From Candidatus Omnitrophota bacterium (GTDB lineage Bacteria > Omnitrophota > Gorgyraeia > 2-01-FULL-45-10), in contig JAPLME010000011.1 in assembly GCA_026387175.1 (NCBI GenBank), positions 1,856 through 65,855 of the forward strand: DNA of 64,000 nt. The letters are read 5' to 3'. The notes below the pieces were generated by a model. It was not told the origin of the DNA. It searched no databases and saw only the letters and a list, made by a program, of their open reading frames with translations. Numbering within the stretch: the stretch's first letter is position 1; each line of letters begins with the position of its first letter. The translations under genes and the position numbers were made by a program. Shown here piece by piece: positions 26,427-31,455 of the stretch.

Positions 26427-26660
26427 ATGTTTAAAGCCACAATCGTAACTCCCAATAAAGTATTGTTCGATGGTGAGGCCTGGAGCGTTTTTTTGCCCGG
26501 GGCTACCGGTGAGTTTGAAATTCTGGAGATGCATAAGGCGATCGTGAGCCTTTTGCGTCAGGGAAATATTGTGATTAACTGGGATATAGAGATACCGGTA
26601 ACCAGCGGCGCGGTCAGGATGTCCGGCGATGAGCTGGTGGCGATAGTAGAGTCAGATTAG
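26427..26660 (+). CDS. atpC: F-type ATP synthase epsilon-like subunit, N-terminal beta-sandwich domain only (77 aa)
   Basis: MFKATIVTPNKVLFDGEAWSVFLPGATGEFEILEMHKAIVSLL matches the epsilon N-domain pattern (GEA..V.LPG..GEFGIL.GH). The start was moved from the track's 26379 to the ATG at 26427 to avoid overlapping the upstream gene. The protein lacks the C-terminal helical hairpin. Confidence 0.55.
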   Translation: MFKATIVTPNKVLFDGEAWSVFLPGATGEFEILEMHKAIVSLLRQGNIVINWDIEIPVTSGAVRMSGDELVAIVESD

Positions 26661-26662
26661 AG

Positions 26663-26689
26663 CAGCTTTCAGCAAAAAACTGATAGCTG
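26663..26689 (+). promoter_or_regulatory. Intergenic RNA stem-loop (10-bp stem with one mismatch, 7-nt A-rich loop) between atpC and atpF
   Basis: cagctttcag-caaaaaa-ctgatagctg. The same motif recurs after atpD. Confidence 0.35.
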
Positions 26690-26705
26690 TAACAAGGAGT
26701 CATAA

Positions 26706-27661: not shown

Positions 27662-29164
27662 ATGAAGACTGAATCTGTATCCATAGGGGAGATCGGGCGC
27701 ATAAAGGAGATCAAGAAATCTATCGTCACGATAGAAGGCCTTCACAACTGCATGCTGGGTCAGCTGGTGACGTTTACAGACGGCACTAAAGGTTTTGTGA
27801 TGGGTTTCAATGAAAACGAAGTCCTGGTGCTGCTTTTAGGAATTTCGAAGACATTAAAAGCCGGCAATGAAGTCTATTCCAGGGAAGAGTCCTTTAAGAT
27901 ACCGGTGGGAAATAATTTTTTGGGCCGTATCGTAAACCCGCTATGCGAGGGCCTGGACGGGAAGGGATACGTCAAGGAGGATTCTTTTGCCTATATATTC
28001 AGGGACGCGCCGGCGGTCCTCGATAGAGAGCCTGTCAATGAAATGCTGGTCACCGGGATAAGGATAGTCGATGCCACCATACCCATAGGTAAAGGACAAA
28101 GACAGCTTATCATAGGCGATAGAATGACGGGTAAGACATCGATAGCCGTCGACGCTATATTGAACCAGAAGGGTAAAGATGTCATATGCATATATTGCTG
28201 TGTGGGCCGTGACTACGCCTCGTTTGAAAAGGTCGTAGGCACTTTTAAAGAGAAGGACGCCCTCGATTATATGATAGTTGTGGCGGCTCTCGCTTCTTCT
28301 TCTATCGGAGAGCAGTATCTCGCCCCCTACGCCGCCGCGGCGTTGGGCGAATACTTCATGTACGCGGGCAAGAATGTCCTTATCGTTTTTGATGACCTTA
28401 CCAAACATGCGTGGGCATACAGAGAGTTGTCCCTTCTCCTGGAAAGGCCGCCCGGCAGAGAGGCTTATCCGGGAGATATATTTTACCTGCACGCTCAGCT
28501 TATGGAGAGAGGCGCCCGCCTGTCGTCACATAACGGCGGCGGCTCCATGACATTCCTCTCGATAGCGGATACCCTGCAGGGCGATATCTCCGGGTTTATA
28601 CCGACGAACCTGATCTCAATGACGGACGGGCAGATATACCTTAACTCCGCGTTATTCGGAGAGGGGTTCAAGCCCGCGATAGACATAGGGCTCTCCGTCT
28701 CGCGTATCGGCAGCAGGGTACAGTCGAAGACCTTAAGGGAATTGACGAAGAACCTCAGTTTAAAATATGTCCAGTACAGGGAGCTTCTGAAGACCACGAG
28801 ATTGAAGTCGGGTATCTCCGAAGATATGACCGGCCGCCTGAAGCACGGCGAGAAGATCGAAAGGATCTTCATGCAGGATAAGAACAGCCCGTCATCTCTG
28901 GCGGAGCAGCTTATCCTGTATTTCGCGCTTGAGACCGGGGCGCTCGATATCCTGTCGAACGAAAAGTGCGACTATTTCAAAAAAAATATATTAGCTTTCG
29001 CCAGGCAGGATATTCCGGCAGTGGTTGAGAACATGGAAAAAGGCGCCGAGATGACGGCCGAGGACAGGGAAGCTATTAAAAAATGTATAATGAATTTTAA
29101 CCATAAGTTGTGGGCATCCGAGGGTGAAACCGCGCCCATCTCCGCAGCCGAGGCCGCGGAATGA
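27662..29164 (+). CDS. atpA: F1 ATP synthase alpha subunit
   Basis: P-loop GDRMTGKTSIAVDAILNQ (alpha-type GDRQTGKT), N-terminal beta-barrel, 500 aa. Confidence 0.9.
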   Translation: MKTESVSIGEIGRIKEIKKSIVTIEGLHNCMLGQLVTFTDGTKGFVMGFNENEVLVLLLGISKTLKAGNEVYSREESFKIPVGNNFLGRIVNPLCEGLDGKGYVKEDSFAYIFRDAPAVLDREPVNEMLVTGIRIVDATIPIGKGQRQLIIGDRMTGKTSIAVDAILNQKGKDVICIYCCVGRDYASFEKVVGTFKEKDALDYMIVVAALASSSIGEQYLAPYAAAALGEYFMYAGKNVLIVFDDLTKHAWAYRELSLLLERPPGREAYPGDIFYLHAQLMERGARLSSHNGGGSMTFLSIADTLQGDISGFIPTNLISMTDGQIYLNSALFGEGFKPAIDIGLSVSRIGSRVQSKTLRELTKNLSLKYVQYRELLKTTRLKSGISEDMTGRLKHGEKIERIFMQDKNSPSSLAEQLILYFALETGALDILSNEKCDYFKKNILAFARQDIPAVVENMEKGAEMTAEDREAIKKCIMNFNHKLWASEGETAPISAAEAAE

Positions 29165-30048
29165 AGGCGCGGGAGATAAAAGAGGACCTCCTCTTCAATA
29201 CCGAATTCATGGGCCTTCTCGAAGTGATGAAGAATATAGCGATTTCTCAATTCCGGTCCCTTCAGAAGAAGAGGAGCAGGTTTATCCGGTTCACCCAGCT
29301 TTTGAACGGTTTTTTTCAGATGGTGGATATCAGGCAGGCCCCGCACAAGTTAATAAACCCAAAGACAGAGAAGAGGGCGATCGTATCGATAACCTCCGAC
29401 GAGGGCTTTATGGGGGACCTGAATTTTCAGGTCGTGGACGCCGCGATCATGAAAGGAGGCCCCGAATCCGCTGAGATTATCGTAGTAGGAGAGTCGGGGG
29501 TAAGGTATCTGAAAGATATGGGAAGAAAATTTACCGCGTTTAAAAACGCCGCCGACGCCGAAGCGAGACATACCGTCGCCGTGGAGCTGAAGAATTATAT
29601 CATGCGAGGCATCGCTGAAGACCGTTTCGGCAGGGTGTCCGTTTACTATCCTAACCCGATCTCATTCATGATCCAGAAAGTGGAAGCCGTGGAGCTTCTT
29701 CCCCTCACTGCCTTCTTTTCGCCGCAGGCGCAAGGCCCGGGATACGATCAGCAGGTGATAGTAGAATCGCCGGCGGAGGGCATAATAGAATACCTCGCCG
29801 AGGAATTTATCGAACAAAAACTGATGGAGCTTCTCGAAGACAGCAAGCTTTCAGAGTTCGCCGCGAGAGGCGCCCACCTCGAGCGGAGCGGCCAGGAGCT
29901 CGCCGAAAAACAGAAACGGCTCAGAGCCCAGTATTTTCACGCTTATCATGAAGTCATAGACAAAAATACCAGAGAACTATTTTCCTCGCAGATTATCATA
30001 AAGCGGAAGGCCAAAGAGGTATCCGCAGCGCTGAATCTTAAAGTATAA
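29161..30048 (+). CDS. atpG: F1 ATP synthase gamma subunit
   Basis: The ATGA start overlaps the atpA stop. The protein is 295 aa, sits between alpha and beta, and has the coiled-coil termini typical of gamma (C-terminus ...LNLKV). Confidence 0.8.
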   Translation: MKAREIKEDLLFNTEFMGLLEVMKNIAISQFRSLQKKRSRFIRFTQLLNGFFQMVDIRQAPHKLINPKTEKRAIVSITSDEGFMGDLNFQVVDAAIMKGGPESAEIIVVGESGVRYLKDMGRKFTAFKNAADAEARHTVAVELKNYIMRGIAEDRFGRVSVYYPNPISFMIQKVEAVELLPLTAFFSPQAQGPGYDQQVIVESPAEGIIEYLAEEFIEQKLMELLEDSKLSEFAARGAHLERSGQELAEKQKRLRAQYFHAYHEVIDKNTRELFSSQIIIKRKAKEVSAALNLKV

Positions 30049-30051
30049 ATT

Positions 30052-31455
30052 ATGAAGAACAATAATAAAACAAAAGGAATCGTGGTAGCGGCCCAGGGGC
30101 CTGTGGTGGATGTGGTATTCAAGACCCTGGAGGACCTTCCGGCCATCAATGAGATCGTCAAGGTCAGCGCCTTCGACGGCAGGACGATCCTTCTCGCGGT
30201 GGCCGAGCATCTTGAGAATAACATTGCCAGGTGCATATCGTTCAGTTCCACACTTAACCTCAGGCGTAATTCGGAAGTCGAATCCACAGGCACGCCATTG
30301 CAGGTTCCCATAGGTCCAGGCCTATTCGGCCGTATCATCAATGTCACCGGAGAGCCGATCGATAACAAGGGAAATATAGACTCGAAGGAGACTCGCTTAA
30401 GCGAAAAAGATATATCCAGGACATATATTAACCCTGTCAGGCTTATGAGCCAGGAGCCGCAGATTTTAGAGACAGGCATTAAAATGATAGATCTCCTTTT
30501 TCCTATGGTCAAGGGTTCAAAGACCGGTGTGATAGGCGGCGCCGGATTGGGCAAAACGGTCCTTATGCTGGAGCTCATACATAACGTCATAACAAAACAC
30601 AAAGGCGTCTGCGTATTCACCGGAGCGGGAGAAAGAATAAGGGAAGGAAATGAGCTGTATCTGGAATTTGAAAAACAGAATATGCTGAACAAGATCATGT
30701 TCGCTTTCGGACAGATGAACGAGCCGCCGGGCGCGAAATTCGGCATAGCGTTTACGGGTGTAACGCTGGCGGAATATCTGCAGGAGCAGAATAACGACGT
30801 GCTCTTCTTCATAGATAACGTGTACAGGTTTGTCCAGGCGGGCGCCGAGATATCCACCCTTCTGGGGCGGGTGCCGTCCGAGACCGGCTATCAGCCAACG
30901 CTGGCGTCGGAGGTCAGCGCTTTCCAGGAGAGGATACGCTCGATGGAGGGCGGCTCCATCACCGCCATAGAAACGGTGTACGTTCCCGCGGATGACCTGA
31001 CGGATCCGGCGGTAGTAACGATATTCAGTTATCTCAATTCCATCATAGTCCTGTCCAGAGAGAGGAGCCAGCTGAGGCTCCATCCTTCGATAGACCCGCT
31101 GCTTTCGTCCTGCAGCAATCTCGATTCTTCGATCGTAGGGCGGGAACATTTCAATATAACGCAGGAGATCATGAAGATATTCACCAAATATAAAGAGTTG
31201 AAGAAGATCGTGCCCGTGGTGGGTATAGAGGAGCTTTCGAAGACCGACAGGACGCTGTATGACAGGGCCAAGAAGCTGGAAAATTTTATGACGCAGCCTT
31301 TTTCCGTGGCAGAAAGCTACACAGGGAAAAAAGGCGAATATGTGCCTCTGGAGGATACACTGGAGGGGTGCGAGAAGATAGTGAGCGGTAAATTGGACAA
31401 TGTTCCGGATCACAGGTTTTATTTCATAGGCAAAATAGCCGACGCGCTGAAGTAG
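30052..31455 (+). CDS. atpD: F1 ATP synthase beta subunit
   Basis: [18 protein letters not shown] and [11 protein letters not shown] motifs are beta-type. The protein is 467 aa. Confidence 0.9.

Follow-up and report, generated by a model that had tools for sequence, protein, structure and literature searches.

Anatomy of the F-type cluster

The stretch of DNA analyzed here (the window) comprises 64,000 nucleotides of the Candidatus Omnitrophota metagenome-assembled genome (MAG) GCA_026387175.1 (contig JAPLME010000011.1, positions 1,856 to 65,855, forward strand). At window positions 26427 to 31455 it carries a cluster of genes for an F-type ATPase; coordinates below are window positions. Six open reading frames (ORFs), encoding epsilon, b, c, alpha, gamma, and beta, lie where an earlier note on this sequence had placed them (Table 1). 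The cluster is a member of an Omnitrophota-wide "symbiotic" F-type ATPase module that combines a catalytically intact alpha3beta3 head with a shaft of gamma and epsilon, a c-ring, and one kind of membrane-anchored b-delta stalk, and subunit a is absent from the neighborhood of this module in about 80 species.

The absence of a, together with that of a separate delta gene, had been read from the window in the earlier note, and both hold. No substantial ORF in the window matched subunit a (PF00119), and none gave a second match to the OSCP family, so that there is no delta gene apart from the fusion described below. A phmmer search that took Escherichia coli AtpB as query and covered both strands, in every ORF of 40 aa or more, likewise gave no match, which counts as supporting evidence only. 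Related loci came from a scan of one genome per GTDB species, which returned 80 loci, and the non-redundant related loci total 82; their subunits were called by mapping the window proteins onto all ORFs. The search for a covered the window ORFs and 10 kb on either side of the related loci, and found none at any of them. No module at these loci holds an extra ORF with multiple transmembrane (TM) segments besides the assigned subunits, and within 10 kb no polytopic protein recurs except GspF. Seventeen polytopic candidates for a hidden a were found in 84 sequences, none of them recurrent, and those scanned turned out to be prepilin peptidase, MlaE, VTT, EamA, and Lnt proteins. With subunit a missing, the module encodes no ion channel.

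The earlier note had further proposed that b is fused to delta and that the fusion replaces it. The fusion itself is well supported: residues 7 to 133 of the b/delta protein match PF00430 (29.8 bits) and residues 145 to 236 match the OSCP family PF00213 (34 bits), a delta-like result in profile alignment that removes one of the two grounds on which the note would have abandoned its proposal. The protein also matches delta NCBIfam models and PDB delta chains (delta residues 102 to 174), while its b part aligns with a complete PDB b chain (residues 10 to 156 of 164). It consists of one N-terminal TM segment, in which a Gln is conserved, the entire b coiled coil, and a delta C-terminal domain that ends in the conserved delta motif (family consensus iaG..i..g...iDGSl.nrl). 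Replacement of delta is another matter. The OSCP match spans only profile positions 82 to 172, which correspond to the delta C-terminal domain, and because the N-terminal domain is gone the fusion does not fully replace delta.

This loss has a counterpart in alpha. In PDB sequence comparisons alpha aligns to canonical alpha chains from their residue 22 to 30 onward, so that the N-terminal helix of about 20 residues that binds the delta N-domain is missing; the delta N-domain and its partner helix have been lost together. Epsilon is reduced as well, matching only the N-domain family PF02823, and the suggestion that it lacks the inhibitory C-terminal helices was borne out. The hydrolysis brake that these helices form is therefore lost. 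Epsilon measures 75 to 77 aa throughout the related loci, and a longer ORF of 93 aa starting at 26379 is unsupported for that reason.

The catalytic and rotor parts are complete. Alpha has its P-loop (GDRMTGKT) and Arg finger (LSVSRIG), beta has all catalytic motifs, including the P-loop and DNxxRFxQAG, and both sets are conserved family-wide. Gamma is 100% identical to a protein placed by NCBI in a Candidatus Omnitrophica MAG; its family is largely confined to Omnitrophota, and all source-named members among its 175 homologues are from Omnitrophota/Omnitrophica. Subunit c has a GRNP loop and a Glu in its second TM segment (TM2; Glu53). This Glu is followed by Ala, with no Na+ motif, and the H+-type site named in the note is one by sequence rule only. 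The family alignment of c, with 65 distinct sequences, shows it to be better conserved than any other protein of the module, with about 60% identity between lineages whose gammas are only about 32% identical, and the GRNP loop, which contacts gamma and epsilon, shares in this conservation. The TM2 Glu is kept in 61 of the 65. At three loci (L052 and L055, with Gly, and L053, with Met) the sole c copy is without it, and alpha, beta, gamma, epsilon, and b/delta are intact.

Some loci carry duplicated subunits. There are two c genes in L010, L024, and L041, one of the L024 copies lacking the TM2 Glu. Two tandem alpha paralogues occur in L006/L029, L025, L026, L032, L033, L040, L044, L047, L049, and L051, the pair lying upstream of epsilon in the last three; tandem alphas suggest a head with two kinds of alpha.

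Table 1. Features of the F-type cluster and its flanks in the window, with bit scores and family cutoffs
Feature	Position	Strand	Evidence
Giant ORF, >8,343 aa, open at 5' end of window	1-25032	+	Repeat and domain analysis
p453, 453 aa; signal peptide/TM, periplasmic body, C-terminal TM	25054-26415	+	AlphaFold2 (AF2) model; homologues
Epsilon, beta-sandwich only, 77 aa	26427-26660	+	PF02823, 44.5 (cutoff 27)
b fused to delta C-terminal domain, 238 aa	26706-27422	+	PF00430 (cutoff 28) and PF00213 (cutoff 22.3)
c, 2-TM hairpin, 70 aa	27435-27647	+	PF00137, 28.7 (cutoff 24)
Alpha	27662-29164	+	TIGR00962, 538.6 (cutoff 484.45)
Gamma, divergent	29161-30048	+	PF00231, 98 (cutoff 39.9)
Beta	30052-31455	+	TIGR01039, 550.2 (cutoff 462.85)
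GspE/PilB-type secretion ATPase with N-terminal MshE-type motif binding cyclic di-GMP (c-di-GMP)	31495-33201	+	PF00437; PF05157; NF053729, 71.5
GspF platform protein	33215-34480	+	PF00482; TIGR02120, 344
Secreted Peptidase_MA_2 protein	34477-35253	+	Domain match
GspG major pseudopilin	35255-35674	+	TIGR01710, 159.9 (cutoff 88.85)
Minor pseudopilins, GspI-, GspJ-, and GspK-like	35649-36152, 36139-36885, 36872-37900	+	
GspL-like PilM/PilN fusion	37897-39414	+	
GspM/PilO, end of conserved unit	39427-39972	+	

Genomic setting and conservation

The cluster belongs to a tightly spaced unit between the giant ORF and genes resembling a type II secretion system (T2SS), as the earlier note described. 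Intergenic gaps from the giant ORF through GspE range from -4 to 45 bp, which fits co-transcription over this span. A terminator scan gave hairpin counts near the shuffled expectation, with none convincing before about 40016, and a promoter scan was uninformative, its counts being close to those in shuffled sequence. A terminator-like hairpin at 40016 to 40034 follows the end of the conserved unit.

All six subunits are present at 52 of the 82 non-redundant loci. The note had called the gene order non-canonical and had suggested that relatives be examined for it. The order epsilon-b/delta-c is confirmed, and it differs from that of N-ATPases, but epsilon-b/delta-c-alpha-gamma-beta proves to be a minority variant, found at 9 of the 52 complete loci (the window included), whereas 38 have epsilon-c-b/delta-alpha-gamma-beta, which retains the canonical c-b-delta-alpha-gamma-beta core. 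Contigs with 44 to 61% gamma identity carry the same gene string, and the ORFs are intact, with their catalytic motifs conserved, in about 80 species, even where gamma identity is as low as 30%. The 80 loci of the species scan are nearly all from Omnitrophota, among them the complete genome of V. archaeovorus LiM (L069); a few are in MAGs labelled Planctomycetia, Verrucomicrobiota, Rokuibacteriota, Ratteibacteria, Binatia, or Neomarinimicrobiota.

The neighbors are conserved along with the module. At 51 of the 59 loci that could be tested, GspE follows beta at a distance of no more than 400 bp, and the exceptions are mostly trivial, such as one inserted gene. Among loci whose sequence extends 5 kb or more upstream of the ATPase genes, about two-thirds have a + strand ORF there that is 1,100 aa or longer. 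The position of the ATPase between a giant gene and T2SS-like genes is thus conserved synteny across about 80 species and not accidental. In a Ratteibacteria-labelled MAG (L054, 4801-7540) a secretin and a TPR protein precede b/delta-alpha-gamma-beta, and a large ORF, not GspE, follows. Apparent alpha-gamma and beta-GspE fusions in L023 (4050-9408) were discarded as artifacts of masked N runs in that GTDB contig, which call for caution in automated fusion detection.

Several features connect the module with c-di-GMP. The gene directly upstream of epsilon encodes p453, p453-GGDEF, or REC-GGDEF, depending on the clade, with a member of the p453 family in most loci. In the window p453 had no match in Pfam or NCBIfam. 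Its AF2 model (predicted local distance difference test score, 79) consists of two repeats of a beta-sandwich plus three-helix bundle followed by a TM helix and matched no PDB fold; the C-terminal TM segment is highly conserved. Homologues in other clades bear a C-terminal GGDEF domain (for example, L028:5495-7387), and in the V. archaeovorus clade a REC-GGDEF diguanylate cyclase is directly upstream of epsilon (L069:5851-6729). By its homologues, p453 looks like the periplasmic sensor part of a diguanylate cyclase family, here without the GGDEF domain. We had considered p453 as a replacement for a or as a plug of the c-ring, and rejected both in view of the GGDEF homologues, the REC-GGDEF protein at the same position in other clades, and the AF2 model without a PDB match.

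The link extends to the motor itself in one sub-lineage, composed of MAGs labelled Rokuibacteriota or Binatia and the JGI contig L087 (beta at 5088-6872), in which the C terminus of beta is extended and carries either one or two c-di-GMP-binding motifs of the MshE type (L059, L060, L066, and L087). The tails of L087, L066, and L060 score 76 to 135 bits on NF053729 (cutoff, 38), and that of L059 matches the MshE motif pattern. In L087, for which gene calls are available, the fusion is real, since a separate complete GspE follows beta.

In the window, the T2SS-like genes begin 39 bp past beta and supply GspE, F, G, I/J/K, L, and M. GspG passes its equivalog cutoff; the other T2SS-like proteins are below theirs but colinear. 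Neither the secretin GspD nor GspC was found among the window ORFs scanned, and the window has no prepilin peptidase. It is only in this clade that a Peptidase_MA_2 gene separates GspF from GspG. On the other side of the cluster, the giant ORF contains three super-repeats of about 1,770 to 1,800 aa, beta-propeller-like, each with two arrays of blades of about 41 aa ("AYSxDGxxW"; 32 blades in total), one Ig-like domain (Big_1), and a coiled-coil C terminus; its visible part has no TM segment.

The remainder of the window holds housekeeping and transport genes. A 540-aa AsmA-like protein at 59193 to 60815, with weak YhdP, DUF748, and T2SS-N matches, has unrelated housekeeping genes around it. 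A single tRNA-Phe (GAA) at 43556 to 43630 overlaps the start of a 213-aa ORF (43552 to 44193), which is probably spurious.

Readings of the module

We put it at somewhat better than even that the module is a hydrolysis-only, c-di-GMP-controlled rotary motor that serves the adjoining secretion or adhesin apparatus and is not coupled to ion flow. The enzyme would work in the hydrolysis direction only, as an ATP-driven rotary motor or energizer without transmembrane ion coupling, and c-di-GMP would switch it together with GspE. Torque between the c-ring and the b-delta stator would be delivered to a membrane component of the neighboring apparatus and would serve to export, assemble, or move the pseudopilus or the giant adhesin while the cell attaches to its prey or host. 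A bolder form of this proposal, which we offer tentatively and consider rather doubtful, is that the module represents a new functional class: a c-di-GMP-gated F1/c-ring motor whose torque acts on a membrane part of a T2SS-like pseudopilus/giant-adhesin machine, or on some partner other than a, instead of on an ion channel, and which is a mechanical accessory for secretion, attachment, or predation in ultra-small bacteria.

Several observations weigh against a motor without ion coupling. The TM2 Glu, the rotor ring, and the membrane stator have all been retained, and in the canonical enzyme keeping carboxylate, ring, and stator would be pointless unless the ring were engaged by some membrane component, which leaves room for an a-analogue or an unlinked a; there may be an analogue that went unrecognized or an a gene beyond the window and the 10-kb flanks. 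L054 and L055 have no adjacent GspE, and in L054 the link to a secretion component holds but with a different partner. F1, c, and b-delta are tied to GspE, F, L, and M and to the giant protein only indirectly, by gene linkage, and the direction of catalysis and rotation is deduced from sequence.

Retention of the ring leads directly to the most ordinary alternative, which the earlier note had framed as a simple split operon: a conventional ion-translocating F1Fo enzyme whose a subunit, and perhaps delta, is encoded elsewhere in the genome. In its favor, alpha and beta score above the trusted cutoffs of the canonical atpA and atpD models, the Glu and GRNP loop of c are conserved, the b stalk is kept, and the search for a was bounded by the window and the 10-kb flanks. 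We nevertheless judge it unlikely, because the b C terminus is delta-like and no related locus has a linked a, although a normally adjoins c. The conserved linkage to GspE and c-di-GMP genes is also difficult to reconcile with an ordinary synthase, as are the N-terminal co-truncation of delta and alpha, the loss of the epsilon C-domain, the lineages that keep the motor with a Glu-less c, and the sub-lineage in which beta is fused to c-di-GMP-binding motifs. Moreover, most complete Omnitrophota genomes have no recognizable canonical F1Fo set and carry V/A-type ATPases. The opposite extreme, a functionless and decaying remnant of an ATP synthase operon, would account for the missing a, delta N-domain, and epsilon C-domain, but the intact ORFs and conserved motifs in about 80 species, the strongly conserved c, and the fixed synteny effectively refute it, and we give it almost no credence.

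Two further alternatives assign the module to known specialized enzymes. It could be homologous to the type 2/3 F1-like ATPases of Mycoplasma (those of the gliding motor and of the MIB-MIP system) and work as they do, a proposal encouraged by the alpha tree of PMC10066038, in which alpha is reported to cluster with type 2/3, and by a functional analogy, a host-dependent bacterium encoding an F1-like ATPase together with giant surface proteins. That grouping may be a long-branch effect. Alpha scores 538 to 572 bits on canonical models and falls below the cutoff of every Mycoplasma model, its top PDB matches are all F1 alpha chains of the canonical kind or a hybrid engineered from such chains, and the Mycoplasma clusters are without b, delta, and c (Beven 2012, PMC3369863), all three of which are kept here; we therefore hold this origin to be quite improbable. 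Still less probable, in our estimate, is a derivative of the N-type (alternate) F-ATPase that continues to pump Na+ or H+. Among NCBIfam models b/delta scores highest, in a full-length alignment, on that of the N-ATPase b (TIGR03321), delta is likewise absent or fused to b in N-ATPases (ProAD, PMC11738941), and a cyclic gene order is compatible. Against this, all N-type models are far below cutoff, there is no atpQ, atpR, or a, and beta is last instead of first.

The distinction matters in several ways. Rotary F-type ATPases are defined by the coupling of a c-ring to the a channel, and a widespread, strongly conserved lineage with ring and stalk but no channel, linked genetically to secretion and c-di-GMP signalling, would, if true, be a second use of F-type rotation. 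It would also offer a testable molecular handle on how Omnitrophota nanobacteria attach to or attack other cells. Even on a conservative view, reconstructions based on KEGG orthology (KO) terms that count these alpha and beta genes as "ATP synthase" are misleading for Omnitrophota. The system lends itself to direct tests through its a-less anatomy, the co-truncation of delta and alpha, and the connection with c-di-GMP.

Relation to published loci and known ATPases

The locus type has already been published. Seymour et al. (2023, Nat Microbiol, PMC10066038) describe a "symbiotic" (sF-ATP), non-respiratory F-type ATPase beside type-4a pilus (T4aP) clusters, ATPase and pilus genes being no more than 10 kb apart on 57 of 66 contigs; the basis was alpha/beta phylogenies and co-location, with alpha said to group with Mycoplasma type 2/3. 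The window agrees with that definition of a locus (an Omnitrophota genome with F-type alpha and beta genes within 10 kb of type-4 pilus/T2SS genes) and resembles the published loci in phylum, in having alpha and beta beside GspE/PilB-type genes, and in a giant ORF nearby. That paper names the locus of V. archaeovorus LiM, which came up here as a homologue (L069) that shares the gamma family and the full synteny. In the available main text and supplements of the paper we found no description of the subunit set (a-less, with c and b-delta kept and a short epsilon), of the c-di-GMP genes, or of the resemblance of the "T4aP" genes to a T2SS (GspG/I/J/K without a secretin), and the literature on V. 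archaeovorus proteomics yielded nothing on this ATPase. What was not found described, within the accessible portions of these sources, is thus the a-less anatomy that keeps c and b-delta, the delta/alpha co-truncation, and the c-di-GMP link with its beta-MshE fusions.

Annotation counts agree with this picture. Among 176 complete Omnitrophota genomes (bioRxiv 10.64898/2026.06.07.730766), alpha and beta KOs occur in 125, a gamma KO in only 30 to 35, and V/A-type enzymes are common, a pattern in keeping with most genomes having no F-type genes but those of this divergent module. Genome 221 of Seymour et al. (about 95% complete), as listed in the source data, has K02111 and K02112 but no KO for a, b, c, delta, epsilon, or gamma.

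Compared with canonical F1Fo (atpBEFHAGDC), the alpha, beta, gamma, epsilon N-domain, c, and b proteins are homologous and the catalytic residues intact. Alpha and beta exceed the cutoffs of their canonical models (Table 1; alpha also scores 572.5 on NF009884, cutoff 554), and gamma, epsilon, c, and b pass their Pfam cutoffs, yet these four are below the canonical NCBIfam equivalog cutoffs (gamma, 70 against 194; epsilon, 44 against 67; c, 17 against 44; b, 26 against 65.5). The cluster differs from the canonical operon in having no a, a delta reduced to a C-domain fused to b, an alpha without the delta-binding N terminus, an epsilon that is without its C-domain and encoded first, and a location within a secretion operon. 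Beta is at most 48% identical to any 50%-cluster representative outside the family, and its nearest neighbors of normal length are a mixture of canonical and other divergent betas.

N-ATPases (Dibrova 2010; PMC11738941) share with the cluster a delta that is absent or fused to b and are likewise a second, non-housekeeping F-type enzyme thought to hydrolyze ATP. They differ in having a, AtpQ, and AtpR and the order beta-epsilon-Q-R-a-c-b-alpha-gamma, none of which is seen here, and the scores of the cluster on N-ATPase models are well under the cutoffs (b TIGR03321, 64 against 224.7; alpha TIGR03324, 520 against 750.5; beta TIGR03305, 488 against 752; gamma TIGR03323, 30.5 against 282). The Mycoplasma type 2/3 F1-like ATPases (PMC3369863), which include the gliding motor of M. 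mobile, resemble the module as F1-derived enzymes with no Fo ion channel, a role at the surface or in host interaction, and very large surface proteins; beyond the subunits that they lack, their membrane partners are unrelated. Scores on the MMOB1660-type models are 425.8 against 600 for alpha and 431.8 against 850 for beta, and those on the MSC_0619-type models are 322.3 against 520 and 414.9 against 570.

An F1-like assembly recruited to a secretion machine has a precedent in FliI-FliJ-FliH of flagella and type III secretion systems, with its alpha/beta-, gamma-, and b/delta-like parts. That assembly is homologous at a much greater distance and forms a homo-hexamer that lacks a c-ring, whereas the cluster encodes a hetero-hexameric F1 and a c-ring beside a T2SS-type ATPase. 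The mycobacterial b-delta protein (PDB 7jg5 chain d) also carries b and delta on one polypeptide, but at about 445 aa it includes a complete delta, in contrast to the 238 aa and delta C-domain found here. An origin from N-type or Mycoplasma-type enzymes was not upheld: classification by hidden Markov model scores and nearest 50%-cluster representatives returned only "divergent F-type" with no clear sister. Judged by sequence, then, the cluster is a divergent F-type lineage of the same kind as the sF-ATPase loci of Seymour et al.

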